Shown here: piece by piece, positions 30,418 through 60,230 of the stretch
Layout: each line of letters begins with the position of its first letter
How positions within the stretch are numbered: the first letter of the stretch is position 1
From: a virus
DNA: 64,000 bases
Virus record (IMG/VR): IMGVR_UViG_3300033816_000195
Coordinates: 1 to 64,000 of that record
Strand: one strand, 5' to 3'
The notes under the pieces: generated by a model
Seen by the model: only the letters and a program-made list of their open reading frames with translations
What the model was told of the DNA's origin: nothing
Database searches by the model: none
Translations under genes and position numbers: made by a program

Positions 30418-32625
30418 TTAGTAAAACATAAATGGAAAAACTGTATCACCCATTACATATGCTCCGCCATTAGCAAATTGTCCACCATATCTACCAACAT
30501 CAAAATTTTGTTTAAATAACATTTCTTGCATCTTTGGACTTAGACCAGAACCTTGTAATTCATATGCAAAATCTAAGGCATCTTTTTGTTTAGTACCTGG
30601 ATCAACAGTTTTATCAGTCGCTACATAATCTACAAAACCACCTGATTCAGGATCAATTTGATAATTAGGGGTCATTTGGTTAAGAGCATCTGTTTGTGCC
30701 GCATTAGTAGTTGCTGTGTTATATGCTTGAGCAAGATTGCCTCTTAAAGCCATTTTAGAATTATCATACTGTTGATTAGCAATAGCATTTTCATTTCCTA
30801 ATTGTTTAGTCAACTGATTATTCAGCATGTTATATTGGTTTCTTAAAGCACCTAATCCTTGTTTATATTGATTAGCAATACCCACATTAGCATTATCATA
30901 TTGACTAGACACATCAGCAACACCTTTTGATAACTTACCTTGCATTGCAGCTAAAGTAGCTCTATTTGCAGGACCAGCAGCTGTTGAAGAAACAGCCTTA
31001 GCTAATTGTGCAGTAGCTTCATTTTGTCCAGCAATGTTTCTTGTAGGATCTAAATAGTTTACTCCATACTCTATAGGTTGCATTCTTTGTGTAATAGGTA
31101 AGTATTTTTTTAATCCCATTAGATTTGCAAATGCATTAGCAGTATTTATAGTATCTTGTAAATAAAAACCTGATCTTCTTCTTGGTGGGGCAAAACCAGG
31201 ATCATATTCTGACTCTGCAGTATACTCATCACATAGACATTTACCATCTACCATAGGTGTCTCAACTTCATTACCATTTTCATCAGGGCAATAACATTTT
31301 TGAACAGGAGCGTTAGGATTTTCTATAACTTTTGGATCCTCTTCCTTTTTAGCTAAAGGATCTAATTGTCTAACTCCAAAATAATTATCTACATAAGCTT
31401 CTTGTAATTTCCCTAATAGTTCTGGATCTTTAAGCATTTCTTCTGTAAATGTACCAGTTTTATTTTGGCTAAGTGCTCTAAGTTTAGAGCTTTCCATTCC
31501 TTTATTTGTTAGACCAAATTCTTGCCACATTGATCTAATAGCATCTGGATTATTTTTTAAAGACCATTCATAGATAGCTTTTTGAGCTTGTCCTTCTGAC
31601 ATATCTTTAATACCAGGTATATCAGCTTCCCATTGTCCTAGATAATCTTCAAGCTTTTGATCTCTATCACTAAACTTATTTTGTTTACCAGTTGGTGTAA
31701 TATTACCTTTTTTAGTTTTAGCTTTCTCATATGGTGTTATAGCTCCTGGAGCAGCTTTAGGTAAGTAACCTCCATAAGCCATTTCAACAGGATTGTAAGG
31801 AAAGAAATAATCTTCCATAGGATATCCTCCGTAAGCCATCATTTGCTCTTGTCCCATTTGCATCATTTGTTCATCTTGCATAGGTTGAGCAATAGGTTCT
31901 CCACTTGGCATTTCTGAAGGCATCTGATTTCCTTGTTCTACTTCTTCATAATCTGCATACTCTTCAGTAGGTTGCTGCTGTGGTTGGGCTTTTTGTGGTA
32001 ATAACTCCTCTTCAGAAATACCATTTGCTTCCATATAAGGTTTAGAAATCAAAGGTATCTCTTGTGGAAAACCTTTCATAGATTCTTGAATTAATGCTAA
32101 TTCTCCTAACTTCATTGTATAGTTTTTTAGCATCATTTCAGCAGTCTTTCTTTCTAATTTATCTGAGTCAGGATCTTGTAGAATTTTTCTATAAGGATTT
32201 AAATCATACTTTTTAGATATAGCCGCAGGAGTATACCCACCATCTTTAGGTGATAAACCAAATTTTTTAAGTATAGCAGGATCCTTTATTTTCATTGCCT
32301 TAGTATCACTGAAAATAAAACTATCATCTGGTAAATTTAAAGGAGTACCTCCTTCATAATGTCTTTTACCACCAATTGTATAAAATGCAGGCATATTACT
32401 ACCATCATTAGTAACAACTGTTTCATTCTTTTCAGCTTCTAGATTAGCTCCTTCTCTTGCAACAGGTTGCAAAGTTCTACTAACTTTAGTTTGAGGTTTT
32501 CCTATATAAGCATTATAGTCAGCACCACCAAAGGCAGGTACGTCATTTGCTAATGCACCTTGAACTTGATAACCAGTTCTAGCTTGTTTTAAACCAGGAA
32601 CTTTTTTAATTCTTACTTTTATCAT
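30418..32625 (-). CDS. virion cargo protein (xxGG-motif rich)
   Basis: 735 aa with an NLEAEKNE…GKRHYEGG domain, a Q/M-rich low-complexity region, CxC…CxC and an N/Q-rich helical C-terminus. Confidence 0.65.
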   Translation of the reverse strand: MIKVRIKKVPGLKQARTGYQVQGALANDVPAFGGADYNAYIGKPQTKVSRTLQPVAREGANLEAEKNETVVTNDGSNMPAFYTIGGKRHYEGGTPLNLPDDSFIFSDTKAMKIKDPAILKKFGLSPKDGGYTPAAISKKYDLNPYRKILQDPDSDKLERKTAEMMLKNYTMKLGELALIQESMKGFPQEIPLISKPYMEANGISEEELLPQKAQPQQQPTEEYADYEEVEQGNQMPSEMPSGEPIAQPMQDEQMMQMGQEQMMAYGGYPMEDYFFPYNPVEMAYGGYLPKAAPGAITPYEKAKTKKGNITPTGKQNKFSDRDQKLEDYLGQWEADIPGIKDMSEGQAQKAIYEWSLKNNPDAIRSMWQEFGLTNKGMESSKLRALSQNKTGTFTEEMLKDPELLGKLQEAYVDNYFGVRQLDPLAKKEEDPKVIENPNAPVQKCYCPDENGNEVETPMVDGKCLCDEYTAESEYDPGFAPPRRRSGFYLQDTINTANAFANLMGLKKYLPITQRMQPIEYGVNYLDPTRNIAGQNEATAQLAKAVSSTAAGPANRATLAAMQGKLSKGVADVSSQYDNANVGIANQYKQGLGALRNQYNMLNNQLTKQLGNENAIANQQYDNSKMALRGNLAQAYNTATTNAAQTDALNQMTPNYQIDPESGGFVDYVATDKTVDPGTKQKDALDFAYELQGSGLSPKMQEMLFKQNFDVGRYGGQFANGGAYVMGDTVFPFMFY

Positions 32626-32630
32626 TTGTT

Positions 32631-35600
32631 TTAGTATATATATTCTACTTCACCACCATTATTTAAAAATTCTTGAAGTTCTTCTGGTGTCATCATTACT
32701 TCATCTCCTTCTTCCATATCATCATACACACTTCCTCCATCCTCATATATAGGCCCACCAAATTTAACTACTCCTTCAAAACCTTGTTCATCTGGTTTAA
32801 ATAAACCTGTATTAGTATCATAGTTTCCACTATCTATCATTGCTGTTTCAGGAGCAGATGCATCACCATAAAATTCATTATATAAACTTGCTTGCACCTT
32901 TTTTGTATCTCCTATATTTTTAAGTCCAGTAGCTCCAGCTAAAGCAGTATTAAATTGAATATTACCTATTTCTGGATTTAATTCCCACATATTTTTATTT
33001 TTGTAATCTACAGAAACTACTCCAGGTTTTTCACCATACTCTTCTCTCATTTTATCTAATTGAGTATTCAGTAATTGTCTTCCCGCATCTTTAGAAGACA
33101 TAGTTTGCATTCTATCTAATGCAGGTTTAGTTCTGTCATCTTCAGTAACAGGAGTTTCAAAACCATATCGAGCTTGAGGTATTCCGCCAAATCTTTTTTT
33201 ACCAGCAAGTTTTGCATCAACTATCTTTTTAAGTTTAGCTTCTTCTGCTTGTATCTTAAGTGTTAAATCATTTGCTTGTTTATTTACCTCAGATAATTTT
33301 GTTTTTTCAGCTGTTGTTTTATTTGTTTTATTTAATAAAGTCATTTCTTGGTCTCTCAAAGTTTCTAGCTGCTTGTTCATTCTAAAAATAATATTATCTT
33401 GTGTAGAAACATCAGAAAATTGTCTAGCTGCATTCTTAGCATCAGTGTAACTATTATAGTTTCTATTACGATATCTAGCCTCATCCTGTTTTAATTTAGC
33501 AGCTTGTGCTTTTTTTGATTCTTCAGGTGAAAGTGGCTTATAATTATTTCTATTTTCAGAAACATATTTATCATAATCATCAGCTGATACATTTGAACTA
33601 GTAGTAGATTTAGATTTACCAGATGAATTAGATTTTGGTTTACTATATTTTTTCTTATTACTAAACCTTGATTTTTTACTAACTGGTTCAATTAAACCTA
33701 ATTGTTCAGGAGTATATTCTGTTTGATACATCAGATCTTCTTCTGGTACAGGTAATGTATTCTGAAAGTTTTCTGAAAGTTTCATAGCATCATTTACACT
33801 TTGATTATAAAAATCTTGTAAAGGCATTTCTTCTTCAAATGTTTGTTGAGGCATTTGTACAGACTCTTCATCATCATTACCAAGAAAAGATCTGAGTCTA
33901 TCTAAGCGGTCAAATAATTGAGGCATTATTCTTCTCTTTTCTCCACCCGGCTGATAATAACCACCAAATCTAAAAGCAGCTTCATTTCTTCTCCATTCTG
34001 GATAAGCTTCATTTCTCATATTTTGGAGATAGTTAAACATTTCCTTTTGTTCATTATAAGGATTGTTTTTGTTAATCTCAAATTTTGCTTCTGGTGCATT
34101 AGGAGTTGTAGGTAAATCAAAACCTGGTCTACCTGTTTGTACATTTGCTGAACTTTGAGGAGAAGCATTAGCTTTCATTTGTTGCACAGCATTGAATAAA
34201 TTTTCAGTAGATGTACTACTTGGTGAACCTATAGCAGATTGTATAAATGCTGCTAACGGATTAGGTGCTGCAGATGCCGGATTTGCTGCAGAAGGTGTGT
34301 TAGCTTCTGTAAAACTTTCATCTGTTATTGGTTCTCCAGCAGCATTAATTACTGTAGTACCACTTTGTGTTCTACTTGTTGGTTGAGCTTTCCCTTGTAA
34401 ATAATCTAAAGCTGTTGGAGATTGTGTCTGTCCAGTAGGTGCAGATTGTTTTACATCAGGAGCACTAGACTGTCTAGGAGAATTAGAGTAATCAAAAAGA
34501 TTAGATGGATTATTTACCATTTGCTCCAAAGCATTACCTGCAGTTTGTTGATTAGCTACATAGTTTGGATCAGTTGCAGCATTAATAGCCGCCATATTCT
34601 GTGCATTAGGTACCCATTTCTTTTGTTGTTCATTCCATACTAAACCTCTATCTTTTTGTTTTTGTTGGAATTCTGCAATATACTCTTTATCTTCTCCAGG
34701 TGCTTTTACAGTAGATGATGGAGTAAATGAAAAATTTCCATTTCTACTATCATCATATGCATAATCACTACCATAACCTTGCTTAAAAGCTCTTTTTATA
34801 TCACGCTCTTTAACTCTCAAATCTCTGCCAGATAAACCTTGAGTTTCTCTCTGTAAAGTAGATTGTAGATCATTTCCTTTAGGTACATTGCTACCGGCAG
34901 ATGTATTACCTGCGGATGCTAAACTACCTGAAGTAGGTAGATTAATCAGTGGTTTTCCAGAAGCATCTCTGTTTACATTATAATCTATAGTATATCTTCT
35001 AGGAGCTCCTGTTAGCCAATTAGATTTTGTAACATTTATCTTAGCAATACTAGAAGGATCAAACATACCTGTGTAAGGTTGATTGGTTCCTGCTACACGC
35101 ATACCCATTGGTTTTGCCCATGTTCCTGCATAAGTAGCAAATCTCCCTGGAAATATACCAGGACCTCTGTTTCCTAATCTAGGATCATAATACATTCCCG
35201 GAAACTGCCCTCTATTATAACCTGCGTTAAAATAATTAGGATAAGCATTTCTGTTTACATTAGTCTGTGTTCTTGTATTACTTTGAGGATTAGACATACC
35301 AGCCTTTTGAGCTAACTCATACATTTCTTTAGCAGATAGATCATCTCTCAAAGACATACCTAATCTATCTCCTATTTGTTTAGCATAAGAACTATAATCA
35401 TTACCTACTTCTCCTCTTGTTTGATATTTAGTTAAACCACCATTAGCAAAGTAAGCATCTGTTGTATCTTTAGAATAAGTATCATCTAAATCTGCTTGAG
35501 TAAAAGCATCATTACCACCATAAATAAACTTTTGTAAATTTCCGTAAGGATCCATAAATGGATCATTTACTATACCACCTATTTGAAATGGTAATTTAAA

Positions 35601-37439
35601 TTGAAAACCTGCAGGTGGATTAAGTAATTTTTGTCCAGGATTTAACATTCTCTGTCCTGAATTTAACATAGTTTGTCCAGCATTTAACATAGTTTGTCCT
35701 GAAGGTAATGCTGAAGTACCTTTACCTAATAGTTTTGAACCACTATTAACAGCTTGAGATACAGCATTTTTACCAAAATTAATTCCCCAATTAGGTGCAC
35801 CAAATACAAGTGTTTGCACTAAAGCATCATCTGCTTGTGCTGCTTGAGGACCCATACCTAGAGAACCATAATAATTTCTTGGATCATAACCCCTGCTATT
35901 CATTCTTTGAGTAGCTTCAGCAATTAATTCAGAATCAGGTTTCCAACCAGTTTCTCTAGCAGTTTTTTCTAACCAATCTTTTCCTTTTGTAATACCTTGG
36001 TCTAGATACTCAGCACCTCCTCTAATAAGATTCTCAATTCCTGCACCAATACCAAATGGATCTGAAGGAGGAGTAACTACTGGAGTAACTACTGGAGTAA
36101 CTGTTTTAGGAGTAGATTTCTTTTTAGGTTTAGTAATAACTTTTTCTGTAGGTATTTCTTCAGTAGGATCATTAGGATTTTCTACTGGACCCACAGGTAA
36201 ATTTCTACCCATTGCTAGATCTTCTGTTCCTGCACCATCTGGTTGTAAATAATCTGGAATATTATCACTATTATAATCTGCCTCATTCCAATTTTTTGGA
36301 CCAGTAGCGTTATTTGCAGCTTCAGAGTTAGTTGTATTTGCTACTTCTTTTATACTCTCATTATTTACATCTTTACTGATTTGTTCAGTTACAAGTCTAC
36401 CCGGAGTTTTATTTCCAGTAGCTCTCATACCGTGCCCATAACCAGGTAAATAATAACCCATACCCATTCCTGGCATAGGGCTAAATTCCATAGAGTATCT
36501 AGAAGGTCTTCCTGTTAACCAATGGGATCTTGTAACATCTAATTTACTTATAGGTCCCATCATTCCCATTTGTAACATATCAGGAGTAAGACCCATAAAA
36601 GGTGTCATGTAATATGGATTGTTTCTAAAACCTCTTCTTTTATTAAAGCCTAATCTTGCTTGTACTAACTCATTCATAGGATCATGAAACACATCAGTAT
36701 CACCATGAGTATAATGAGTAAAGTCATATGGTTGTTCTTGACCACCATCTTGCATGTATGTATCAAACTGATTTTCTGCTTGTTCTTTTATTACAGCTAA
36801 CTGAGCATTATTCTTAAGATTATTTACAAAAGAACCTTTCATATTATTCCTAACTTCTTCACCAGTTGGATCTGGTGTAGAAGATTGAGTTAGTTGTGTT
36901 GTTCCACCAAGTTCTTTTTTAGCCAGTTTAAGAATATTGTTTACATACTTTCTTCTTTCCTTTTTAAAGTTACCTCCTAATTTAGCTTGAGTAGTTGCAT
37001 TAGGATCTTCATAGTCAGAGTATATTTCTGCATCAAAGTCTGAGTCGTCTCTATCTTCAGCTATAAGATCATTAGAAATTTTAGTTTCATTCTGTTGTGA
37101 AACAGGTTGTGTTACAGGACTATTTGCTATTTCTACTTTGTTAGATTCTGTTGCTTCATCTGTTTCTTCTTCTTCCTCTTCTTCTTTATTTTGAGAAGCA
37201 TACATTTGATATACTTGATCATAGTAACTATTAGCTGAATTAAAATCATTACCTAAAATAGCAAAGAGTTTAACCATAGTTTCTTCTTTAGCTTTTCCTG
37301 AAGCAATATCATTTGCTATAAAATTTACCAATTGTTCTTGAGAAGAAGGAGGTGTTCCACCCATTTGTGCTGTAAATTTTTGTAGTTTACTTACAAACTT
37401 CCCTTTTCCATCTGGTGCTTTAGTTATTCTTACTTTCAT
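32631..37439 (-). CDS. largely low-complexity virion cargo protein (xxGG-motif rich)
   Basis: 1602 aa and Cys-free. Carries many xxGG motifs and a duplicated 'V-T-x-S-x-W-L-T-G-x-P-x-R-Y' unit. Confidence 0.65.
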   Translation of the reverse strand: MKVRITKAPDGKGKFVSKLQKFTAQMGGTPPSSQEQLVNFIANDIASGKAKEETMVKLFAILGNDFNSANSYYDQVYQMYASQNKEEEEEEETDEATESNKVEIANSPVTQPVSQQNETKISNDLIAEDRDDSDFDAEIYSDYEDPNATTQAKLGGNFKKERRKYVNNILKLAKKELGGTTQLTQSSTPDPTGEEVRNNMKGSFVNNLKNNAQLAVIKEQAENQFDTYMQDGGQEQPYDFTHYTHGDTDVFHDPMNELVQARLGFNKRRGFRNNPYYMTPFMGLTPDMLQMGMMGPISKLDVTRSHWLTGRPSRYSMEFSPMPGMGMGYYLPGYGHGMRATGNKTPGRLVTEQISKDVNNESIKEVANTTNSEAANNATGPKNWNEADYNSDNIPDYLQPDGAGTEDLAMGRNLPVGPVENPNDPTEEIPTEKVITKPKKKSTPKTVTPVVTPVVTPPSDPFGIGAGIENLIRGGAEYLDQGITKGKDWLEKTARETGWKPDSELIAEATQRMNSRGYDPRNYYGSLGMGPQAAQADDALVQTLVFGAPNWGINFGKNAVSQAVNSGSKLLGKGTSALPSGQTMLNAGQTMLNSGQRMLNPGQKLLNPPAGFQFKLPFQIGGIVNDPFMDPYGNLQKFIYGGNDAFTQADLDDTYSKDTTDAYFANGGLTKYQTRGEVGNDYSSYAKQIGDRLGMSLRDDLSAKEMYELAQKAGMSNPQSNTRTQTNVNRNAYPNYFNAGYNRGQFPGMYYDPRLGNRGPGIFPGRFATYAGTWAKPMGMRVAGTNQPYTGMFDPSSIAKINVTKSNWLTGAPRRYTIDYNVNRDASGKPLINLPTSGSLASAGNTSAGSNVPKGNDLQSTLQRETQGLSGRDLRVKERDIKRAFKQGYGSDYAYDDSRNGNFSFTPSSTVKAPGEDKEYIAEFQQKQKDRGLVWNEQQKKWVPNAQNMAAINAATDPNYVANQQTAGNALEQMVNNPSNLFDYSNSPRQSSAPDVKQSAPTGQTQSPTALDYLQGKAQPTSRTQSGTTVINAAGEPITDESFTEANTPSAANPASAAPNPLAAFIQSAIGSPSSTSTENLFNAVQQMKANASPQSSANVQTGRPGFDLPTTPNAPEAKFEINKNNPYNEQKEMFNYLQNMRNEAYPEWRRNEAAFRFGGYYQPGGEKRRIMPQLFDRLDRLRSFLGNDDEESVQMPQQTFEEEMPLQDFYNQSVNDAMKLSENFQNTLPVPEEDLMYQTEYTPEQLGLIEPVSKKSRFSNKKKYSKPKSNSSGKSKSTTSSNVSADDYDKYVSENRNNYKPLSPEESKKAQAAKLKQDEARYRNRNYNSYTDAKNAARQFSDVSTQDNIIFRMNKQLETLRDQEMTLLNKTNKTTAEKTKLSEVNKQANDLTLKIQAEEAKLKKIVDAKLAGKKRFGGIPQARYGFETPVTEDDRTKPALDRMQTMSSKDAGRQLLNTQLDKMREEYGEKPGVVSVDYKNKNMWELNPEIGNIQFNTALAGATGLKNIGDTKKVQASLYNEFYGDASAPETAMIDSGNYDTNTGLFKPDEQGFEGVVKFGGPIYEDGGSVYDDMEEGDEVMMTPEELQEFLNNGGEVEYIY
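35615..35700 (-). repeat. 21-bp tandem repeat (x4, degenerate) encoding GQTMLNA/GQTMLNS/GQRMLNP/GQKLLNP
   Basis: Directly visible: atttaacatagtttgtcc occurs twice exactly, plus two degenerate copies. Confidence 0.85.
36069..36102 (-). repeat. 12-bp tandem repeat encoding VTPV-VTPV-VTPP
   Basis: The unit ggagtaactact is repeated. Confidence 0.8.
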
Positions 37440-37497: not shown

Positions 37498-40400
37498 TTA
37501 CAATTCTTCTATAATGTAACCTTGATCAACATATCTTTTTAGGTCTTCTTTATTTTTAATATCCATTTCAATAGCCCCACCATTTTTCTTGTTCCACCAA
37601 CCAGTTTTAAGCCAATCAAAAAAACCTTCATCTGAACCTTTAGAGAAATCAGTAGTATTTATTACATTTTGAGTCCATTTATTTCTTTCTGATAATCCTC
37701 TTCTTTCATATTGCTGGAGCATTTTATTTTTATCTCCTTTTACAACTCCTTCTACAAAACTTGGGAACGGATTTAAGCTACCTAAATTATATGCATAATC
37801 AGTAAGCATCATTTGACTATTCTGAGGTAACTTGTCATAAGTTCCTGTACCATATTTTTTATCTACATATTCTTCTGCTTTAGCCTGATGAACTAATACA
37901 TCTTTTTTCTGTAAGTCTCTAGCTTGTTGTTCAGTCAAACCTGAAGCAAATGATTCACCAGGTTTTAATTTATGTCCATAAGCTATAGTATTAGCACCAC
38001 CCTCAATACTAGAATGTGGATACCATTTATTATTTTTGTAACCTTTTTTAATAGAGTTTTCTAAATCTCTTAAATCTGATAAGTATTTTTCTAGAGTAGC
38101 TGGGTCTAAATCTTTAGGAGATAGTTCTCCTCCCGGAGCATAGTTATTAATGTTACCACCTTTTTTATTTTGTGGTTCAGTATTATTTTCAGATGTACCA
38201 TAAGCAGCTGCACCGGTTCCTAAACCTGTCGGAATAATATATGGTAATAAAGCTTTAAATTTATTAGGATTAGTTAAATCAAATTCTCCACTATTACCCC
38301 ACCTAGATTTAAGTTGTTGTGCCTTATTTAAATTATGCACTTCAACGTCAATAGGGTTTAGAGTACCGTCCATTATCTTTTGAAACTCTACTCTGGATAT
38401 ATCTTTACCTGCGGGTGAATTTAAAAAATCTGCAAAATGATCTGTCATTACCCAGTCATTTAAAATTCTAGGTTCTCCTGACCAACCTCTTTCTGTCATT
38501 GTAGGATGTTTCTCTAACATCCAATTTTTAAAAGCTTCTAAATTTTGAGCTTCTAATTCATTAGCAGGTACCTGATCAATTGCATTTAACCTAGCATAAT
38601 TAGTTCTATATGCCGGATCTATAACCTCTTTACCCTTATCGTCAATATAAGGTAAACCATACTTTCTATTCTTATGTCCTATAGGATATATATTTCCATC
38701 TATAACTATTTTATTAGTTGTTTGTGGCATATATAATTGACTTATCCCTTCTGGTGGAGCTTCTGTTAAAGATATAGCCGGCTCATCTAATGTTCTATTA
38801 TAAGCTCTTGCACCATATTCATCTTTTGTTGTAAATACAACCTTAGATTTGTCACTCCAATCACTTTTTAATGCATCACTTTTATCACCCCCTCTATATG
38901 TTATTTCAGTTCCTTCAGGATAAGCTTGTTTAAACTTAGTACTTTGTTGTTGAATAAATTGTTCTGGTGTTCCTTGGAAAGGAGTTCCATCTGCATTTGT
39001 CATCCAAGTACCATTAGCTTTTGTTTGTTGTTCAATAATATTATACTCTTCAGAATTTTTAATTACATTTTGAATATCTTCAGCATCATAATTTTTATTA
39101 TGTTTTTTTACCCAATTAACCCAATCTATTTCTGATTCAAAGTTAGGAATTGTTTTAGGAGTTTTTGTTCTACTTCCTAAACCAAGCATAAGTGGTCCAG
39201 GAGGTCTATTAAAAAACTCTTTTAATTTAGCTGATTTAATAATAGGTTTTGCAACTTTACTTGCTGTATTTGATGCATTTGCTCCTTTAGAATAATTTTT
39301 ATATCTTGTATGTGGTTGAAGTGGATTAGGATTATATAAAGGTAGTTCTTTACCAGTTGCTCCTGTTATTTGATCTTCTAGATACTGATAACCTTTATTT
39401 GAAAATACAGGATCATCCGGTGAAAAAGGAGAATAATTAAAATCAAACTCACTTATATCAATATCTTCTCCTCTAAAATTCTTAGCATAAACAGGTTGTT
39501 TAAAAACTTCCTCTGGTGCTGCTTTTATTACTGTTGATTTTCTTGGATAAAAAATATTTTTTCTAGGGATAATGTATTCATTAGCATTTATTTCTGATTG
39601 AAACATAGTTCTAGGTTGCCCTGGTAATACAGAACCTTGTGCTGTTTTTAAGTTTACCACATCTGAATCACTTAAAATATTTTTTTTCCAAAAAGGTATT
39701 TTTACTTCTTCTATCACCATATCATCTCCCATAAAAACACCTCTCCTGCCTTCATTTCCTTTTAAATATTGTGACATTTCTTCCAAGTCTGTTGTAAAAA
39801 AATCTCCTTTTTTATTTACTTTAGTTATAAGTTCTTTTTGTTTTGCTGCATTTATAGGATCATCTCCTAAACCATAATTTAAATTTTCTAAATTTTTATC
39901 AAATGTACTAGCTCTATATCCTCTTGTAGGATATATTACATTATCTGCGTATTTTAATCCACTTTTTAAAACAGGTTTTGCAACTTTACCTGCTGTACCA
40001 ACAACTGGTAAAGCACCTACAACATCAAGAGCAACACCTAATGCATCTGTGTCAACATCAACATAGTCTTTATTATCTCCAAATAGTTTACTACCTAGTG
40101 TCATAGCACCTTCAACAAGAGTTTCAGGAACTTGACTTATACCTGTAGTTAAATCACCTGCAAACTTTAAAGGATCATCTATCAGTCTTTCTCCAGTTCT
40201 TATAGCAGAATTTATACCTGTAATTTCTCCAACTCCAGATAAAGCTTCTGATAAATGTTGCATATTTTGACGATCTCTATTAGCATTATATGTTGCTTCA
40301 TCTACTGATATGTTTTCAATACCTTTTAATTTATTTTCTTTATTTACTTGAGCAGCCCTATCTGCAAAACTAGATGTTGATTGTTTTTTTGCTACTGGTT

Positions 40401-41517
40401 TTGAAACAGCAACTGGTTTTGCTTTAGCTACTTCTTTTTTAATAGTAGCCATTTCAGACTTACTTAATGTAGGCATCTTGTAACCTGTGCCTGGTTTAAA
40501 TGTACCACCAGGTTGCATCTCAGGTAACTCTTCTACTACATAACCTCCATCAACATATTTTTGTATTTCATTATCAGAAACATTTAAAGTAATACCTCCA
40601 TCTTTTTCCTTAGGTACATATTTAAATCTTTGTAAATCTAGATCATATACTGGTGTACTATCATTAGCTCTAGGACTTGCATAATGACCAGCTATTTCCA
40701 TCCAGGTTGTGTCACCTTCTTTAAATCCTGGTTTACCTGATTTTAAAAATACTCCTGTATTTGGATTAACACTAAAACCATGATAATATCCATCATAAGG
40801 ATCTGGTTGCCAATCAGAATTCATTTGTAAAGCTTCTTCAAAGTTTTTAGGTTTACCTAATGCATCCCACATACCATAGTGATCATATTCATTTGGATCA
40901 CCATAAAAAGAATAAGGTCTCCTATTTTCAGGAGCTGATTCAGAATACTCTAGAAATTGGTTATAATCTTCTGGCTCATTTTCTGTTCTTATTGGCTTAA
41001 ATGGCATTGGTGTTTCCTCTGCTTCTGGATCAACAGAAGTAAATGGATTATAATTATAAGGAACACCGCCATCTTGATAATACTTAGCATTAGGATCAAA
41101 TACTTTTCTTTTTTTAGATTTTGGTTTCTTAAATAGAGGATTTTCTGTAAACAGTTTATTTGTAGCAGAAAGACTCCTTGAATATTTTTTAGAAGCTAGA
41201 CCCTTTTTAGTTGGTTTAGGCATTTGTACTAAACCTCCTTTTTTTGCCATAGGAGTTTCATCTACATAGTCTGCTCCTGGAAAATTATATTCTTGTCCAG
41301 GATACATCATTTGTGGTTTACCAATATTAGGTTGTGCAAATACAGGATAAGGTACTCCTTGCATAGTAATATCACTAGAAGGTATTCTAGTTTTTTGACC
41401 CGGGAATTTCCATTGACCTTGTTCAGTATAAATAATATCTTTTTTATACGGATTAGGTTTCTTGTATTTATCTAAATCTAATTTTGCTTTAGATAAGGCT
41501 TTTCTATTATAACTCAT
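37498..41517 (-). CDS. polyvalent virion protein: ADP-ribosyltransferase-like domains and C-terminal lysozyme-like domain
   Basis: ART-like unit YR…FFTTD…EYIIP. ART-PolyVal-like unit YRG…VFTT…AY…QLKSRWGNSGEFD. Lysozyme-like unit LENS…YPHSSIEGGANTIAYGHKL…DYAYNLG. Confidence 0.65.
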   Translation of the reverse strand: MSYNRKALSKAKLDLDKYKKPNPYKKDIIYTEQGQWKFPGQKTRIPSSDITMQGVPYPVFAQPNIGKPQMMYPGQEYNFPGADYVDETPMAKKGGLVQMPKPTKKGLASKKYSRSLSATNKLFTENPLFKKPKSKKRKVFDPNAKYYQDGGVPYNYNPFTSVDPEAEETPMPFKPIRTENEPEDYNQFLEYSESAPENRRPYSFYGDPNEYDHYGMWDALGKPKNFEEALQMNSDWQPDPYDGYYHGFSVNPNTGVFLKSGKPGFKEGDTTWMEIAGHYASPRANDSTPVYDLDLQRFKYVPKEKDGGITLNVSDNEIQKYVDGGYVVEELPEMQPGGTFKPGTGYKMPTLSKSEMATIKKEVAKAKPVAVSKPVAKKQSTSSFADRAAQVNKENKLKGIENISVDEATYNANRDRQNMQHLSEALSGVGEITGINSAIRTGERLIDDPLKFAGDLTTGISQVPETLVEGAMTLGSKLFGDNKDYVDVDTDALGVALDVVGALPVVGTAGKVAKPVLKSGLKYADNVIYPTRGYRASTFDKNLENLNYGLGDDPINAAKQKELITKVNKKGDFFTTDLEEMSQYLKGNEGRRGVFMGDDMVIEEVKIPFWKKNILSDSDVVNLKTAQGSVLPGQPRTMFQSEINANEYIIPRKNIFYPRKSTVIKAAPEEVFKQPVYAKNFRGEDIDISEFDFNYSPFSPDDPVFSNKGYQYLEDQITGATGKELPLYNPNPLQPHTRYKNYSKGANASNTASKVAKPIIKSAKLKEFFNRPPGPLMLGLGSRTKTPKTIPNFESEIDWVNWVKKHNKNYDAEDIQNVIKNSEEYNIIEQQTKANGTWMTNADGTPFQGTPEQFIQQQSTKFKQAYPEGTEITYRGGDKSDALKSDWSDKSKVVFTTKDEYGARAYNRTLDEPAISLTEAPPEGISQLYMPQTTNKIVIDGNIYPIGHKNRKYGLPYIDDKGKEVIDPAYRTNYARLNAIDQVPANELEAQNLEAFKNWMLEKHPTMTERGWSGEPRILNDWVMTDHFADFLNSPAGKDISRVEFQKIMDGTLNPIDVEVHNLNKAQQLKSRWGNSGEFDLTNPNKFKALLPYIIPTGLGTGAAAYGTSENNTEPQNKKGGNINNYAPGGELSPKDLDPATLEKYLSDLRDLENSIKKGYKNNKWYPHSSIEGGANTIAYGHKLKPGESFASGLTEQQARDLQKKDVLVHQAKAEEYVDKKYGTGTYDKLPQNSQMMLTDYAYNLGSLNPFPSFVEGVVKGDKNKMLQQYERRGLSERNKWTQNVINTTDFSKGSDEGFFDWLKTGWWNKKNGGAIEMDIKNKEDLKRYVDQGYIIEEL
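39244..39997. repeat. 25-bp direct repeat (24/25 identical) at 39244-39268 and 39973-39997
   Basis: aggttttgcaactttac(t/c)tgctgta, 729 bp apart and in frame. Confidence 0.9.
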
Positions 41518-44500
41518 TACCTAAGTGATATTTGGTTTTTACTATTTGTAAGTTTAATTATCATATTCACATCATTAGAAATTTCTCTTTTTAAATGGAG
41601 TATATTTAAATAATGTCTAAACTTCTTTCTTTGTAATTCTGGTTTAGTTAAATCTAAGTTAGCTAAATTTAATTCTTTTCTATAACCATCTGCTCTAGTT
41701 ACCCAAATATTTTCACTAGGATAATTTCCTAAAAGTTGTGTAGTATCTGGTACTAATGGACCTTGTGGTGGATAACCTGAACCAATAGGAAACTCTCCTC
41801 TATCTTTTGTTATATCCCAGAACTGATTAAATCTATATTTGTTTTCTTCTTTAGAGAATAATATATCAAACCCTGGTAAACCTACTATAGTATCATCTAT
41901 AATAGTTGGTATAATCGGATTAAACTTAGGATAATCTAAACTAAGTGTTACATTATTTTTAGGGAAAATATTTAAATTTAAATACCCGGATACTTGTTCT
42001 GAATTATATATTACTGCTTTATCAAAATTATAATCTAGTACATGGAACTGATCAACACAGTTACCAGCTTTTCTCTTATAACATTCTAATATATATTCTA
42101 TAGATTTAATTGTAGTTACAGTCTGTCCTGTAATAATTGGCAGTTCTATTTCAAAAGGATAAGGAGTTCCATAGTAATTACAGAAATTATCGCACACATA
42201 ATTATGTATCCATAAAGTATTACCTTTTGAAGTTAAAAATGTAGTTTTTGTAGGGAATGTTAAATCTGGATGCCAGTCATGAAAACTTATCCAGAAATTA
42301 TTTTTAGGGTCAAAACTTATTGTCCAAGATGCACTTTCAAATAAAGCAGGATCACCAATTAAATATTTACCTTTTCCACCTACTGTAAAGTAATCACCCC
42401 TACCTTTATATTTTCCTGTTGAAACATAAGGTACATATTCTACAGGACCAGCCGGTCTTTGTTCTATAGGTTTTAATTTATAATCTTTTTTAGCAAAATA
42501 TAAAATAGAGTTTTGATTATCATAGACAGATTGTATTCCAATACCAGCAACAGGATTATCTTGCCATGGGTAATTAGGAAAATCTTCAAGTAACTTATAT
42601 GGTAAGAATAATGTAAACCACCATTTTAAACCTATCTGAGATATTTCTTTTAACATGTTACCACCATACTGATATATCTTTGCTTGGTTTTGAGAAACAT
42701 AGTACAAACCAGCAGGAGTATTTATTACAGACAATCTATTTTGAGATGATCCATATTCATATGGTTTATCTGCATTTGATACTGTTTGTTGTGGTTGTGA
42801 AAATAAACCTCCGTCACCTATAGTAATTTTTGTATTAAGATCTGTCTGAAGAACATCTACACCCTGATACATTAATGGGCTATCATTTTTAAAAGTAATT
42901 AATATACCATTTTTATTTATTGACTTTACACCAGATATTTGTGATTTAAATTCCTTATAGTTATTTGGTAAATATACAAACCAACTATCTTTAAATGCCT
43001 CTTCTACTTGTTGTAAAGAATAATAAATTCTATCAGGAAAATATGTATAGCAAAGTTTAGAAACAAAAGGATCATAATATCTAGATTGTAAATTACCAGA
43101 TGAAAAATACTGATTATATAATTTACTTACACTTAAAGAATAGTCATATTCATAGTAATCTCCTTGAGTAATATTTACAGGATTCATATCAAACAATACA
43201 GGTAAATCTGTATAGTTATATGGATTGTATACTTTTTCAAATTGTTGTGAACCAGCTTCTCTAAAATCTACAAGAACATCACTCTCTACATAAAAATCTC
43301 TAACAGAAGAATTAGCTAAATAGAAATAAGAATTCTTTACACCAAAACCAACAGCAGGAGGATAGTTACCTTCAGCATCTGTTTGATAGTTATAACTATT
43401 GTGATCTAGTTGATAAAAGTTTCTTGGTCTAAATCCTCCACCAGGATAACTAGGCGAAAGGAAGTTTGCTGGACTCATTTCTGAAATATCATATCTCTGA
43501 GAGTTTATCCAGAATCTAGGATTTATAAACATTCTTCTTAAAAGATAATTATACTCAAATCCATTTGGAAAATCATATAACCAATCATTAAAAAAGAACA
43601 TTGTGTTTTTTTCAGCATACCTATTAATATAAGTATCTCCACCAAAAAATATAGGAGTTTTAGTTAAAGACTTAACAGTATAATTACTATTTACTCCCGG
43701 AGTACATTGAAATGGTCCTGTTTGTACAAAGTAATTAATATCTGTAGGGTCTGTATAATTTATTTTTTGTTCACAAGGTGTGATTACAATTTGTTTTATG
43801 GAATCTAATTGTCCATACTGATTTTGTAATCTAACTTTTATAGCTCCATAATAGCTAGCAATATTTTTTCCAAAATCTCTATCAGGAGTAGCTTCATAAC
43901 CTAACTGACCAACAGTAACTAATGATTTATCATTTTGTAAAAATGCAGGTCCTTTATTTAAACCATTTGGATAACTAACATTATATCTAGGACCTGTAAG
44001 AGTTCTTAAAACTACTGTGTCAGATCTTTTAAGATTATTTATTTTATATCTATACCACGTACCGGGCACACTATTGTTTGCATAAGAAGGCATGGTTTGT
44101 AAAGAATCTCTTAAATAAAAAGCCTCTCCAATTTTAAATCTTTTTAAATTACTATCTGATAATGTTTGTGTAATATTCCAACCATCATAAAATCCATAAG
44201 CTTGTTGTTGAAGTGCATATTGTCTATATGGTAAGAAAGCATATATAGCATCAAGTGTAACATTAGCACCTTCAGAAAAATAATATGCAAACTTATTTAT
44301 AGCACCTAATACACTAAAACCTGTTTCTAAATATGCTGGTAAATATGAGTTTGCATTAGATTCAACAGATAACCAAGGAGCTGTATAATTTCCACCAAAA
44401 GCTAAAGCATTTTCATTAAAATTTTGTAATAGTTGTTGTTCTACATTAGTTCCTGTAAAAGCATCTAATAAAAAACCACCTGAAAGATCATAAATACCTT

Positions 44501-54305: not shown

Positions 54306-54331
54306 ATATTAATAATTACTGTAATTCTAAT

Positions 54332-56047: not shown

Positions 56048-56077
56048 TTTTTCTAATTTTTAATTAATAAACATAAT

Positions 56078-56108
56078 ATAATATAATAAATCTTTTTGAA
56101 ATAACAAA
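56078..56108 (-). promoter_or_regulatory. putative promoter TTTG-N19-TATATTAT
   Basis: Bacteroidota-type -33/-7 spacing with the same variant -7 box. Confidence 0.55.
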
Positions 56109-56110
56109 AT

Positions 56111-56629
56111 TTATTTCAAGAAAAGTAATTTATACTTAGTAGAATTAATTGAGTCTTTAACAAGATCTAAGTTGTTTACTATCTCAGAATAAGGTAACAT
56201 ACCTTGTAATTTAGTAATCATTCCATACATATCTCTAAGATAAGCTACACCATCTGCAACAGTATCAAGTGTTCTAGGTGTAACATCTTTACAGTTTAAT
56301 ATTTTTTCTGTTACTCCTTGGTAACCTTCTACAAGTGTATCTGCATGTCCAGGTAAACCATCATAGAAATCCCCAATAGCAACATGAGCAGCATAAGATC
56401 CTTCTCCGGTTACTTTAAGATGTAATTTATGAAAACTATTTCTAGCATTCATAAGTTCCATTGCACAAGCCGCTACCATTGTATCTAGTGAACTTCCACC
56501 TACACCAGCATCTGGAGTTGGTTGTGGTTTAGCTGGTTCTGACTTGGGTTGTGTTACAGTTACTTCCGGTCTACTTAAAGTTCTAGTAGATTCTGGATTT
56601 CTTTTAAGTAATCTTGATTTTGTTTCCAT
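56111..56629 (-). CDS. ferritin/Dps-like four-helix protein (DUF5856-like)
   Basis: Pattern HKLHL…SYAAH…FYD…D.LVE.YQG…KYKL matches phage Dps-like proteins. Confidence 0.75.
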   Translation of the reverse strand: METKSRLLKRNPESTRTLSRPEVTVTQPKSEPAKPQPTPDAGVGGSSLDTMVAACAMELMNARNSFHKLHLKVTGEGSYAAHVAIGDFYDGLPGHADTLVEGYQGVTEKILNCKDVTPRTLDTVADGVAYLRDMYGMITKLQGMLPYSEIVNNLDLVKDSINSTKYKLLFLK

Positions 56630-56631
56630 AT

Positions 56632-57330: not shown

Positions 57331-57333
57331 GTC

Positions 57334-57711
57334 TTATTTTTTTCTTTTTATAGCTCCACCTTTTTTTTGAGAAGGTATTTGATAATTTGGATACAGCTTA
57401 TTTACTGCCTCAGTTTCTGGATTTACATATTTTTTTGTTGCATCATTATATGCCTTACTTAAGTTGGCTCTTACTGCTTCTTTAGACTTTTCCCGTAAAA
57501 GATCTATATCAGGACGCATACTTCCTGCAAGTGATGCAAGTAGATTACCTGTATTTTTATAACCACCTGTAGAATCTGGTTTGTTAATCATCATGTCATT
57601 TGTCTCAATTCCATCTTGAGCTTTTTTCAATGACTTCTTTACTACAGTTTGCCTAGCTTCATTAGCTTTTCTAAATGCTGTAATAGGGTGAACTTTATTA
57701 GTTTTTTTCAT
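57334..57711 (-). CDS. small basic protein (KKGG motif)
   Basis: Lys-rich termini; contains KAQDG and QKKGG. Confidence 0.7.
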   Translation of the reverse strand: MKKTNKVHPITAFRKANEARQTVVKKSLKKAQDGIETNDMMINKPDSTGGYKNTGNLLASLAGSMRPDIDLLREKSKEAVRANLSKAYNDATKKYVNPETEAVNKLYPNYQIPSQKKGGAIKRKK

Positions 57712-57713
57712 GA

Positions 57714-57878
57714 TTATTTATTTTTAGCCATTTTTTTAAATGTAAGTGCTAAGGTTTTAGCTTTACCAGTACAACCAGGTTTAGTTATAGGAGTACATTT
57801 TCCAGCAGTACCTCTACGTTTAATAGAAGCTGTAGCCTTTTGTATCCAGTTTTTATCTGACTTCTTTTTAGTTGCCAT
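57714..57878 (-). CDS. 54-aa basic protein MATKKKSDKNWIQKATASIKRRGTAGKCTPITKPGCTGKAKTLALTFKKMAKNK (absent from the ORF track)
   Basis: ATG at 57878 and TAA at 57714. Fills the gap exactly between its neighbours. Confidence 0.8.
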   Translation of the reverse strand: MATKKKSDKNWIQKATASIKRRGTAGKCTPITKPGCTGKAKTLALTFKKMAKNK

Positions 57879-57880
57879 GA

Positions 57881-58204
57881 CTATTTCTTTTTAACTCCAC
57901 CTTTCTTCATGTAACCCATTTTATTTCTTACAGCAGTAGGAAGTTTAGATAAACCTGTATTATCTGAAGGAACAGGTTTAAGAGATCCTCCAGATTTCTT
58001 TTTCATAATACCACCTTTTTTCATAGTATCAATACCTTGGTAATTTGGTCCTGTAGGTCCAGAGTTAGGCATACCAGCAATAAATGTTTTAGCATTTTTA
58101 TCAGCTAATTTCATTCCACCCATTGCCATCTTTTTTACTTTCTTAACAGGTCCTCCAGATTTCATTTTACCACAACCCATTTTACATGTTTTCATTGCTT
58201 TCAT
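57881..58204 (-). CDS. small basic protein with five xxGG motifs
   Basis: Contains MKSGG, MAMGG, MKKGG (twice) and KKSGG, plus the module GLSKLPTAVRNKMGY. Confidence 0.75.
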   Translation of the reverse strand: MKAMKTCKMGCGKMKSGGPVKKVKKMAMGGMKLADKNAKTFIAGMPNSGPTGPNYQGIDTMKKGGIMKKKSGGSLKPVPSDNTGLSKLPTAVRNKMGYMKKGGVKKK

Positions 58205-58206
58205 AA

Positions 58207-58614
58207 TTATTTCTTTTTAGATTTTAAAACAGTTTTTTTAGTTGGTTTAGATTTTATATAACCACCTTTTTTAAAAGGTGTGGTAGATTCTTTTACAGGC
58301 TTTTTTCCAGCAGCAGCTACTTTTTCATCTTGTTGCTTAATATATTTTTCCCTAGCATCTTTTCTTTTCATACCAGGATTTGCTTTTTTAATATCAGTTA
58401 CTTCTTTACGTCTTTTAATAGTATCAGCTGTCATTTTACCTATAACACCTGCTGCACCAGTAACAGCTGTTGTAAGACCTGCAACAACACCTGGACATGG
58501 TTCACAACCTTGTCTTTCACCACCTACATATTTAGGACATTGTCCTTTTCCACATCCTCCAAAAGATGCTCCACCGGTTTTCATTTTTTTAATTGTTTTT
58601 ACAGTCTTTTTCAT
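58207..58614 (-). CDS. small basic protein with Cys cluster and hydrophobic Gly/Ala segment
   Basis: Contains MKTGG, FKKGG and GVVAGLTTAVTGAAGVIG. Confidence 0.7.
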   Translation of the reverse strand: MKKTVKTIKKMKTGGASFGGCGKGQCPKYVGGERQGCEPCPGVVAGLTTAVTGAAGVIGKMTADTIKRRKEVTDIKKANPGMKRKDAREKYIKQQDEKVAAAGKKPVKESTTPFKKGGYIKSKPTKKTVLKSKKK

Positions 58615-58624
58615 TTTATATAAT

Positions 58625-58984
58625 TTAACAATTCCACTTTCTTAAAGACTTATTAATCCTTGAGTTAGGATCATTAGCTGTTTTAGAGCTTGTTAGTTTT
58701 TTCTTCATTCCACTCATCCTAGCACAAAAAGATTTTCTTCTCTTAGCAGATTTACTATCCGGATCTAGTTTAGAAGGTTTAGTAGTAACAGCCATTTTAA
58801 GTTTACTTCCTGGATTCTCTCTTCTATAAGAAGCTACACCTTTAGCATTAAGACCTCCTGTCTTATTTTTTCCTTCTGACCTTGTCCAAGCTGGAGTAGA
58901 GCCACCAGATTTCATCTTAGGTTTCTTACCAGCTTTCTTCATTGAGATAGCTATTGCTGCTTGTTGTGCTCTATTTGCTGCCAT
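58625..58984 (-). CDS. small basic protein (DUF6321-like); start reassigned to MAANRAQQ at 58984
   Basis: Pattern GGLNAKGVASY…PGSKL…RRKSFCARM…SRINKSLRKWNC. ATG at 58984 abuts the upstream stop, whereas the track start at 59035 overlaps it. Confidence 0.7.
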   Translation of the reverse strand: MAANRAQQAAIAISMKKAGKKPKMKSGGSTPAWTRSEGKNKTGGLNAKGVASYRRENPGSKLKMAVTTKPSKLDPDSKSAKRRKSFCARMSGMKKKLTSSKTANDPNSRINKSLRKWNC

Positions 58985-58985
58985 A

Positions 58986-59273
58986 TTAATATCCTTTACT
59001 TTTTTTACTACCTGGTTTAGCAAATCCAGAAACATGTCCTCCTAATCTTTTTTTAGGTTTAGGATAAGGGTTTTCTCTATGCCATTTTTTAGTTGCTGCT
59101 ACACCTTGTTTAATAGTTTTTGCTCCTGCTTTTTTGGTTAAGTTAATTGTATCCCACTTTCCTTTGTCTTTAGTAGGATGATTAACCATAATATCACCGG
59201 GTTTACCTTTACCTATTTTATTAGTTTTTTTATAAACCCGGTGCTTTTCACCATCAGCAGTAACTCTTGCCAC
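58986..59273 (-). CDS. small basic protein
   Basis: GTG start overlaps the upstream TAG. Contains KRLGG. Confidence 0.7.
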   Translation of the reverse strand: MARVTADGEKHRVYKKTNKIGKGKPGDIMVNHPTKDKGKWDTINLTKKAGAKTIKQGVAATKKWHRENPYPKPKKRLGGHVSGFAKPGSKKSKGY

Positions 59274-59404
59274 TATTTCTTAGTTTTAGTAGTAGTAGTT
59301 TTTGCTGTTTCTTTTTTTTCCTCTGCTTTTACATATGCAGGATTCAATATAAATTTTCCAGGTGCAGTTTCTATGTAAGCTGGAATTTCTTTTTTTGTTG
59401 CCAT
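59273..59404 (-). CDS. 43-aa protein MATKKEIPAYIETAPGKFILNPAYVKAEEKKETAKTTTTKTKK (absent from the ORF track)
   Basis: ATG at 59404 and TAG at 59273-59275 overlapping the next GTG. Fills the intergenic gap. Confidence 0.75.
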   Translation of the reverse strand: MATKKEIPAYIETAPGKFILNPAYVKAEEKKETAKTTTTKTKK

Positions 59405-59419
59405 GTTATATTAATTTAA

Positions 59420-59665
59420 TTAAATTTTTTTACCTGAAGCAAGATTATTAAATTCTTTTGCTTTTTCTGCTGCCATCTTTTTTACATCAGCCATTAACTT
59501 AGTATTCTTTTGAATCTCAGCAGCTCTTTGTAATGTAGACATAGCAGATTCAACTTCCCACTTTCTCATCTCTGCTTTACCACCCCCTAAAATAGAAATA
59601 CCAACAGTAGAAGAACTCTTCTTAGTTGGTGTTGATTTTTTAGTTGTTGTTTTTTTTATTGCCAT
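59420..59665 (-). CDS. small basic protein
   Basis: Lys/Thr-rich N-terminus and a KWEVESAMSTLQRAAEI helix. Confidence 0.75.
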   Translation of the reverse strand: MAIKKTTTKKSTPTKKSSSTVGISILGGGKAEMRKWEVESAMSTLQRAAEIQKNTKLMADVKKMAAEKAKEFNNLASGKKI

Positions 59666-59667
59666 AA

Positions 59668-60006
59668 CTATACTTTTTTAACTCTTCTTCCCATACCTAC
59701 TTTAGACTTTTCAGCTTTCTTAGCAGCTAGTTTAGAAGGAGTTAGTTCATACTTTGTTTTAGGAGTATCCTTTGATACTCTTTTTGTAGGCCGGCAGTAT
59801 TCATTTTTACCACCGGCACCACAAGGTTTTCCTGATTTAGTATCTTGCCACTTCTCTGCTTGCCATCTTTTTAGTTCAGTTCCTTTCTCAGTCTTCCTAA
59901 CTTGACCTTTACCTTTTCTACACTTTGCAATAGCTTGTGATGCTCTTGCTGAAGGAAAAACAGCATATCTGGATTTTACACTATGATAGCAAGAATCTTT
60001 AGGCAT
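59668..60006 (-). CDS. small basic protein (DUF5872-like)
   Basis: Pattern KDSCY…FPSARAS…KCRK…LKRWQAEKW…PCG…YCRP…TPKT. Confidence 0.7.
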   Translation of the reverse strand: MPKDSCYHSVKSRYAVFPSARASQAIAKCRKGKGQVRKTEKGTELKRWQAEKWQDTKSGKPCGAGGKNEYCRPTKRVSKDTPKTKYELTPSKLAAKKAEKSKVGMGRRVKKV

Positions 60007-60008
60007 GA

Positions 60009-60230
60009 CTATTTTTTCTTAGCTTTTACCATTCCACCCTTTTTCATCATTCTGCCATACATTGCTTCTGGTATAGCAGTTTTAGGAGCTTTAGAAGTAC
60101 CACCAACTTTACCTTTTGGTTTAGTTTGTTTTTTCAATGCTGGATTTGTACCTCCAGTTTTTCCACTAGGTGTTTTATCAGCACCCATTAACTTTTTAGA
60201 CTTTGTTTTAGTCACGTTAGCAGCTTTCAT
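60009..60230 (-). CDS. small basic protein; start reassigned to MKAANV at 60230
   Basis: Contains GKTGGT, GKVGGT, AMYG and MKKGG. The track start at 60275 overlaps the upstream gene. Confidence 0.65.
   Translation of the reverse strand: MKAANVTKTKSKKLMGADKTPSGKTGGTNPALKKQTKPKGKVGGTSKAPKTAIPEAMYGRMMKKGGMVKAKKK

Follow-up and report, generated by a model that had tools for sequence, protein, structure and literature searches.

Does a five-residue peptide that recurs in the putative cargo proteins of an uncultured phage mark them for loading into the particle, or for cutting? The question is raised by a 64,000-nucleotide stretch of viral DNA (positions 1 to 64,000 of IMG/VR record IMGVR_UViG_3300033816_000195; hereafter, the window). 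An original prediction, made from the letters alone, had seen the motif [MFYAK]-x-x-G-G throughout internal or cargo proteins and taken it for either a docking signal or the site of a maturation protease. This observation is partly confirmed, in the narrower form [M/Y/F]-x-x-G-G, and the motif really does mark the ends and joints of probable particle-internal cargo. As to its function, we lean slightly, and tentatively, toward a loading and retention tag over a cutting site.

By its predicted genes, the window comes from a divergent, uncultured crAss-like phage. Two minus-strand genes anchor the analysis, those for the major capsid protein (61349..62965; Pfam Crass_capsid, E 3.4e-29) and the muzzle protein (41517..47012; Pfam crAss_MUZ, E 3.1e-28). 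The muzzle gene is the reference by which the next three genes are called cargo-position genes; they share its strand and encode proteins of 1339 amino acids (aa; 37498..41517, directly after the muzzle gene), 1602 aa (32631..37439) and 735 aa (30418..32625, possibly C1-like). The capsid gene is the upstream anchor of a basic cassette, eight small Lys-rich open reading frames (ORFs) of 81-136 aa (57334..60275, minus strand) flanked by a structural gene of 232 aa and by a gene of 338 aa that follows the capsid gene. The three large proteins and the eight small basic ORFs make up our cargo set. Portal, terminase and scaffold labels are putative and follow gene position and our own reading.

All pentapeptides listed by the original prediction are present in the named ORFs, as are the variants QAR.G and KAQDG. 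The 735-aa protein contains MAYGG (twice), GRYGG and FANGG; all 12 strings listed for the 1602-aa protein and all 7 for the 1339-aa protein are there; and the small basic ORFs hold QKKGG, MKSGG, MAMGG, MKKGG (three times), MKTGG, FKKGG and KRLGG. We compared these counts with 2000 composition-preserving shuffles per protein set. The cargo set has 33 copies of [MFYAK]xxGG against 10.5 expected (standard deviation [sd] 3.1), 23 of [MFY]xxGG against 3.8 (sd 1.9) and 11 of MxxGG against 1.4. The other 22 ORFs of the window show no excess of [MFY]xxGG (7 copies versus 7.0 expected), whether we take the 12 within the region covered by the prediction (5 versus 2.9) or the 10 outside it (2 versus 4.2). 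Measured against a composition-matched background, then, the motif stands out in the cargo set but not in other ORFs. The RNA polymerase (RNAP) and ring proteins have no copies each, in line with the claim that they and the muzzle are not enriched; the muzzle itself is borderline (5 versus 1.27). Scaffold-position and capsid proteins likewise lack an excess.

The first place of the motif is more restricted than had been proposed. Met, Tyr and Phe are enriched there, but Ala and Lys are not: among relatives of the phage, Ala fills this place 79 times against 74.7 expected and Lys 60 times against 136.8. Bulky residues peak three places before the first Gly (Met, 11 versus 1.8 expected), the place two before it is Lys-rich (19 versus 5.6), and no such bias surrounds the 62 Gly-Gly sites of the other window proteins. 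Because the pattern had been picked after seeing the sequence, we also scanned 80,000 gapped patterns of three residues without bias. K.GG came first (19 versus 4.3, Bonferroni p 0.012) and M..GG second (11 versus 1.4, Bonferroni p 0.018); within the three large window proteins alone, no single-residue pattern survives correction. The suggestion that copies come in closely spaced pairs fared less well, since Gly-Gly pairs at most 20 aa apart are in modest excess in the cargo proteins (9 versus 5.2, p 0.04) but not in the small proteins (6 versus 5.7).

Relatives of the phage carry the same signal. From at least 599 IMG/VR capsid matches we kept 80 loci, both cassette-flanking genes being present in 46. 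In all 80 the capsid gene is 89-95% identical, from which we take the lineage to be abundant in metagenomes. The relatives are kin of one another, and the family counts that follow are not independent events. The 46 cassettes encode 310 distinct basic mini-proteins (19% Lys, 9.6% Gly) with 306 copies of [MFY]xxGG against 31.5 expected and 219 of MxxGG against 18.1, in 300 distinct motif contexts. The 735-aa family comprises 1803 representative clusters at 50% identity, the best 150 of which hold 428 copies against 101 expected. All 24 listed members of the 1602-aa family, the window's own included, have 3-8 copies each, at recurring places, where 0.8-1.6 are expected, and 120 homologues of the 1339-aa protein hold 652 against 108.7, with 112 of them clearly enriched. 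Even in a more distant relative (L004), whose 735-aa orthologue is 44% and 1602-aa orthologue 30% identical, the three proteins after the muzzle have 3, 7 and 5 copies (0.6, 1.0 and 0.7 expected). Copies are absent from its rings and from the two large proteins that come next, and its muzzle has 2 versus 1.3. Three unrelated large families and the basic cassette agree on the excess.

Within the cassette the consensus widens to Lys-Lys-[Met/Tyr/Phe]-[Lys/Gln/Ala]-[Lys/Thr]-Gly-Gly-[Ser/Ala/Thr]-[Thr/Val]-Lys, with about ten positions around Gly-Gly biased (Lys-Lys before it, Ser/Thr-Thr/Val-Lys after it). At the motif, Gly and Lys are encoded in the same codon proportions as in the background, which indicates that selection acts on the peptide and not on the DNA. 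A recombination joint at the DNA level is ruled out by this codon use together with the variety of the cassette copies, whose 306 instances form 204 distinct 15-mers. Internal translation starts at the motif Met are ruled out as well, because Tyr and Phe fill the same place. The motif is real, confined to cargo-position and basic proteins, selected as a peptide and conserved in far relatives. The idea of one shared signal stands for these proteins.

Copies fall where the model is disordered and where homology breaks off. For the 735-aa protein, AlphaFold2 modelling from 72 sequences (mean predicted local distance difference test score [pLDDT] 76) gives folded parts at residues 43-210, about 320-420 and 489-711. 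Residues 216-308 and 713-727 fall below pLDDT 50, and these segments hold both linker copies of MAYGG (residue 263, 31825-31839; residue 282, 31768-31782) and the pair in the C-tail, FANGG (residue 717, 30463-30477) with GRYGG just ahead of it. In the 72-sequence alignment, copies pile up at query residues 260-299 (96 copies) and 700-719 (14). A further 45 copies at query 80-99 are different in kind: they represent a homologous Y-x-I-G-G in a folded domain, which in the window is YTIGG at residue 82 (32368-32382), inside the folded N-domain. No solved chain matched a profile of the 72 homologues at E ≤1, Foldseek had no match at E ≤0.001, a wide VIA search returned only helical rows with Z <8, and the N-domain had no tblastn match in 50,697 GenBank phage records.

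The other two large proteins show similar placement. The 1602-aa protein has seven [MFY]xxGG copies, MQDGG at residue 229, FQIGG at 618, FIYGG at 638, FANGG at 664, FRFGG at 1156, YQPGG at 1162 and YEDGG at 1565. FIYGG is kept in 16 of 16 aligned homologues and YEDGG in 15 of 16, and in this family copies also occur at residue 8 and within 30 residues of the C-end. The 1339-aa protein is a mosaic, with YQDGG at residue 147, YVDGG at 321, MQPGG at 334 and YAPGG at 1126, and a lysozyme-like module, recognized by weak matches, at about residues 1155-1264. Its homologues share only 7-56% of it, at up to 93% identity, and exchange VanY, lysozyme, amidase, SLT, SET-domain and PF18760 modules. Of 205 high-scoring segment pairs (HSPs), 62 end at residues 150-159, just after YQDGG, and 31 start at 1120-1129, at NKKGG/YAPGG, ahead of the lysozyme-like module. 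Together, the 735-aa disorder model and the homology blocks that end at the motif support the earlier remark that copies sit at domain boundaries.

The basic cassette takes this modularity to an extreme. Across the 46 loci it spans 1472-4907 bp with changing gene content, its ORFs range from 41 to 642 aa, and the same modules appear either fused or as separate genes beside a capsid gene that hardly varies. We think that this hypervariable cassette looks like an arms-race locus. In the window it holds 8 [MFY]xxGG copies, 7 of them MxxGG, in proteins with 17-27% Lys, and the pattern KKGG-x-x-K-(x)-KKK closes four of its ORFs. No mini-protein among the 310 starts at the motif Met or stops at Gly-Gly, and in at least 47 the Gly-Gly is followed by a final Lys-rich tail of 4-9 residues. 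Tandem arrays of the motif occur, with three copies seen within 25 residues. Of 1176 internal homology breakpoints in the cassette, 32.5% lie within 5 aa of a copy, compared with 17.9% at random, an excess that is partly by construction because BLAST alignments tend to extend through a shared motif. Two of the window's cassette ORFs carry DUF6321 and DUF5872, modules also found in cyanophage proteins annotated "structural protein". The nearest cultured relative by capsid, Leptolyngbya phage Lbo-JY46, gives no cultured parallel: nothing comparable to the basic cassette follows its capsid gene. Its capsid protein is also the best match among the 50,697 GenBank phage records, at 28% identity, so no close cultured relative was found there.

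How might such a peptide work? As a tentative answer, [Met/Tyr/Phe]-[Lys/Gln/Ala]-x-Gly-Gly, in the basic proteins Lys-Lys-Met-Lys-Lys-Gly-Gly-Ser/Thr, would be a short linear signal that occupies disordered seams and termini in proteins loaded into the particle. A protein would carry many weak copies, each consisting of a bulky anchor residue and then a Gly-Gly turn, and the copies would dock onto one another or onto a site that recurs on the inside of the procapsid. Any tagged module could then be packed, from a large mosaic effector to a tiny basic protein. We infer that the cargo-position and basic proteins are inside the virion from the post-muzzle position, which is that of cargo genes in phage crAss001, from the location of the cassette in the head operon, and from the cyanophage annotations. 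On this view something would read the motif, and the reading would be binding rather than cutting. Stand-alone proteins keep whole tags, and tags also come in tandem arrays; both features suit multivalent binding. The terminal Lys tails, and the lack of a Pfam prohead-protease match in the genome screen described below, count for a tag as well.

Several points weigh against a loading tag. No binding partner was identified; a joint structure prediction for the 538-aa capsid protein, the last 301 aa of the scaffold-position protein and the 107-aa basic protein gave no answer (score 0.00), which counts neither for nor against docking. Even residence in the virion is a deduction from gene position and from crAss001, the N-domain of the 735-aa family having no match among the GenBank phage records. 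Copies in the middle of proteins, at the ends of homology blocks, would also be expected of a polyprotein cleavage site, and a neighboring giant protein encodes a conserved metallopeptidase-like signature. Finally, crAss001 packs its cargo without a motif excess (gp45, 3 copies versus 1.3; gp46, none), so such a tag is dispensable for crassvirus loading in general. The original interpretation is partly supported: the idea of a shared signal holds, with docking and cutting both as candidate mechanisms.

We also considered the 338-aa gene after the capsid gene as a counterpart of the crAss001 auxiliary protein gp36 and found no support (BLASTP E 0.8). As gp36 lies on the outer surface of the capsid, it would offer no obvious docking site on the inside.

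If the motif is a loading tag, the closest known system in its manner of working is the capsid targeting sequence (CTS) of phage T4. According to the accessible part of PMC9026906, the CTS is borne by the internal proteins IPI-III and Alt, combines targeting and cutting, and is removed by the prohead protease gp21; the two functions may be combined here too. In both phages one short peptide is shared by basic proteins that are otherwise unrelated and change fast; these travel in the head and are ejected from it (probably so in our case), and in both a variable gene set lies beside conserved head genes. The T4 signal, as far as that part of the source describes it, is a single N-terminal propeptide of about 10 residues that is cut after Glu by a known serine protease. 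Our motif differs in sequence, is repeated, and occurs at N-ends, C-ends and internal seams, and no gp21-type protease family turned up among 122 of the 135 ORFs of a complete relative.

The cargo of crAss001 is the closest comparison in kinship. There, the accessible text of Bayfield et al. 2023 (PMC10172136) places the genes for C1 (gp45) and C2 (gp46) directly after the muzzle gene, and our 1339-, 1602- and 735-aa genes occupy the same block position. That text describes short C1 segments that dock on portal and tail-ring proteins and cargo thought to unfold for ejection, and contains no occurrence of "cleav", "proteol" or "protease". The docked gp45 segments it presents are helices or a folded domain, unlike Gly-Gly peptides, and, as noted, neither gp45 nor gp46 has a motif excess. 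In the ESM Atlas, a crAss_CARG1 cluster is among the look-alikes of the 735-aa protein (rank 10, score 0.93); the window's cargo proteins have no Pfam crAss_CARG1 match at E 0.01 or better. Outside phages, short Gly-containing peptides on disordered ends or repeats load the shells of other compartments, as in the cargo-loading peptides of encapsulins and the repeated shell-binding motifs of the carboxysome protein CsoS2, and encapsulins share the capsid fold of tailed phages. Their sequences differ from our motif, and the likeness is one of working, not kinship.

The alternative that survives best is that the motif is a processing site, which we consider possible but somewhat unlikely. Mosaic cargo and fused basic polyproteins would have their seams cut, either inside the head or once ejected, by a zincin-like domain in the co-packaged giant protein or by an unrecognised protease. 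If a zincin did the cutting, a thermolysin-type preference would put the bulky Met, Tyr or Phe just after the cut. The breakpoints near the motif in the cassette, the HSP ends just after YQDGG in the 1339-aa protein, the wide size range of the cassette ORFs and the modules fused in one relative and split in another all fit such a site, and the conserved HExxH...E signature of the giant protein also speaks for it. So does precedent, since in phiKZ-like phages and adenovirus, too, internal proteins share a common cleavage motif. The T4 internal proteins do so as well, as far as the accessible part of PMC9026906 goes. For phi14:2, the available text of 10.1101/2020.03.07.982082 describes gp65 orthologues with a zincin-like protease domain and fused polyproteins that are "likely cleaved", and Iyer et al. 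2017 (PMC5512222, accessible part) proposed that zincin-like peptidases process polyvalent proteins.

The original prediction had called for a protease search in the rest of the genome. The record holding the window has 73,498 bases and relatives of 97-100% estimated completeness have 115-122 kb, which shows that the window's own genome is incomplete. Six-frame searches for adenain Peptidase_C5 (PF00770), with E up to 1, found it in none of five such relatives. In the complete relative (G004; 121,494 bp with terminal repeats, 135 ORFs), Pfam matches at E 0.001 or better in 122 ORFs included no prohead-protease family of the gp21/U9, HK97 S78 or ClpP/S49 type; the screen left out the orthologues of the muzzle, two rings, capsid, and portal- and terminase-position genes, along with 7 short or overlapping ORFs. 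Its proteolysis-related matches were a DUF2201_N plus VWA-like domain in the replication block, a ClpS adaptor, and Peptidase_M15_4 and Peptidase_C92 genes, which adjoin each other and look like lysis genes.

Nor does the proposed likeness to adenain or the protease of African swine fever virus (ASFV) amount to membership. Adenovirus protease sites have the form (M/I/L)-X-G-G|X and lie in the precursors of basic core proteins, so that there, as here, a bulky residue and then Gly-Gly mark basic DNA-associated and other internal proteins. In our motif the bulky residue stands one place further out, the place that adenain uses is Lys-rich, the host is bacterial and Peptidase_C5 was found in none of the five relatives. 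Since the defining features were tested and are absent, we do not assign the motif to the adenain or the T4 protease system.

The only candidate reader or cutter that we found, and a candidate rather than a match, is a zincin-like domain predicted in the giant 4320-aa protein (7430-20392, minus strand). Its signature region (17453..18232, minus strand) contains HEAWH at residue 830 (17891-17905), the only HExxH in the 33 window ORFs, followed some 50 residues later by EE.LAEDF. The H, E and H, together with a Glu about 46 residues further along, do not vary among 59 sequences that are 30-46% identical. The region has no Pfam match even at E up to 10 and no Foldseek match; its best VIA hit reaches Z 4.4, and rows for metal hydrolases and zincins lie at Z 2.8-4.0, values short of a convincing fold match. 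We treat the domain as a candidate only, because the same HExxH...E signature is present in gp47 of crAss001, a phage without a motif excess, and because giant-protein homologues do not avoid the motif. Avoidance had seemed plausible from the window, where four giants have no copies against 3.1 expected, but 120 homologues neither avoid nor favor it (131 versus 149.5). Processing is further disfavored by the stand-alone mini-proteins, which keep the motif flanked on both sides or three times within 25 residues, and by the scaffold-position and capsid proteins, which show no excess.

The architecture of the giant protein is of the polyvalent type, and polyvalent proteins are the closest comparison for mosaic architecture. 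Pfam domains differ among the 120 listed homologues and include AlkB-like, YbiA/DUF1768, PF18760, helicase, kinase and RNase H domains. Changing effector modules in the giant and 1339-aa families, and the HExxH...E signature, recall the proteins described in the accessible part of Iyer et al. 2017 (PMC5512222). A conserved seam peptide does not belong to that concept as laid out there, and neither "linker" nor "glycine" occurs in that part of the text. In a bolder version of processing, which we regard as doubtful, cargo effectors and mini-proteins would be strings of modules split by the motif, and a co-packaged zincin-like peptidase would cut just before the bulky residue, inside the head or once injected, and free changeable effectors. 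If this were true, a tailed phage would be delivering polyproteins by means of a site and a type of enzyme that phage maturation is not known to use.

Separately, the giant protein contains an AlkB-like 2OG-Fe(II) stretch at residues 3616-3753, below the Pfam cut-off, and a DprA-like PHROG match at 3823-3968.

It is improbable that the motif is a passive hinge or module cap without a reader, in which the bulky residue closes a module and Gly-Gly breaks the structure. Such a joint would tolerate module exchange and let proteins unfold through the tail, and it agrees with copies at seams, at ends and in disorder. It also agrees with an argument in the accessible text of Bayfield et al. 2023 (PMC10172136), by which some unfolding of the cargo is needed for exit via the tail. 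Yet the ten or so biased positions around Gly-Gly are more than a hinge requires, tandem copies occur inside proteins without folded modules, and the other multi-domain proteins of this phage lack the motif. That the motif is a DNA-binding or condensing unit of basic head proteins, a role like that of SPKK and AT-hook motifs, is very unlikely. The small proteins are indeed Lys-rich and the motif is Lys-flanked in them, but in the large proteins it occurs in acidic or neutral contexts (MQDGG, YEDGG, YQDGG, MQPGG), so that the bulky residue and Gly-Gly are common to all copies and charge is not. We dismiss chance, low-complexity composition, or descent from a few repeats as scarcely credible: although the pattern was defined after seeing the sequence, the relatives are not independent samples and Y-x-I-G-G (residues 82-86 of the 735-aa family) does supply 45 copies in 72 sequences at a homologous position, K.GG and M..GG lead the unbiased scan, the excess is seen in the three unrelated large families taken one by one and again in 310 mini-proteins of varied context, and the other 22 ORFs, with the same overall composition bias, lack it.

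Only in a few model phages, T4 foremost, have shared signals for entry into the head been worked out in detail. The motif described here, five residues long, is common to three families of large mosaic proteins and to hypervariable basic mini-proteins in an abundant, wholly uncultured crAss-like branch. As a loading tag, it would provide a rule for predicting injected proteins from sequence alone and a handle for packing foreign proteins; as a cutting site, it would define a new maturation or effector-release system. Either reading gives a testable prediction for lake and sea metaproteomics. Literature searches, with subscription journals and bioRxiv supplements outside their reach, returned no description of the motif in print. 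They yielded no paper joining "crAss-like" and "Gly-Gly", and the theme of prohead protease, cleavage motif and glycine led only to T4 and SPN3US. For DUF6321, DUF5872 and DUF5856 they returned one unrelated paper.

The cargo families have further peptides in common. The 735- and 1602-aa families (homologues P0004-P0177) share an N-terminal K-V-R-I-x-K-x-P, and in each the last Gly-Gly is followed by a conserved C-terminal peptide, hydrophobic or acidic. Another seam peptide, K-A-Q-D-G or Q-A-R-x-G-Y/F, recurs in large and small proteins. In the cassette, the DUF6321 gene (58625-59035, minus strand) is 70-81% identical in DNA to genes of Prochlorococcus and Synechococcus myo- and podoviruses and of pelagiphages, and in a T7-like cyanophage a DUF6321 gene also directly follows the capsid gene. 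Its listed start in the window overlaps the upstream ORF 58986-59273; relatives start at an internal Met.

Elsewhere in the window, Pfam identifies ring proteins 1 and 2 (47014-48734, minus strand) and PHROGs a family-B DNA polymerase (134-2032). In the window's own genome, the portal-position gene is separated from the capsid gene only by an acidic ORF of 417 aa. A DUF5856 protein (56111-56629, minus strand) lies within the structural operon and is kept in relatives; its PHROG label is "starvation-inducible transcriptional regulator". Two small Cys-rich ORFs of 81 and 65 aa (49427-49672 and 53477-53674, minus strand) sit among the tail genes, and the tail proteins adjoining them also have Cys-rich ends. 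In the complete relative (L094:12681-12929; L101; L089), besides the ClpS adaptor, a DnaB-type helicase is split by an intein with an HNH domain, and there are several GIY-YIG and LAGLIDADG homing endonucleases.

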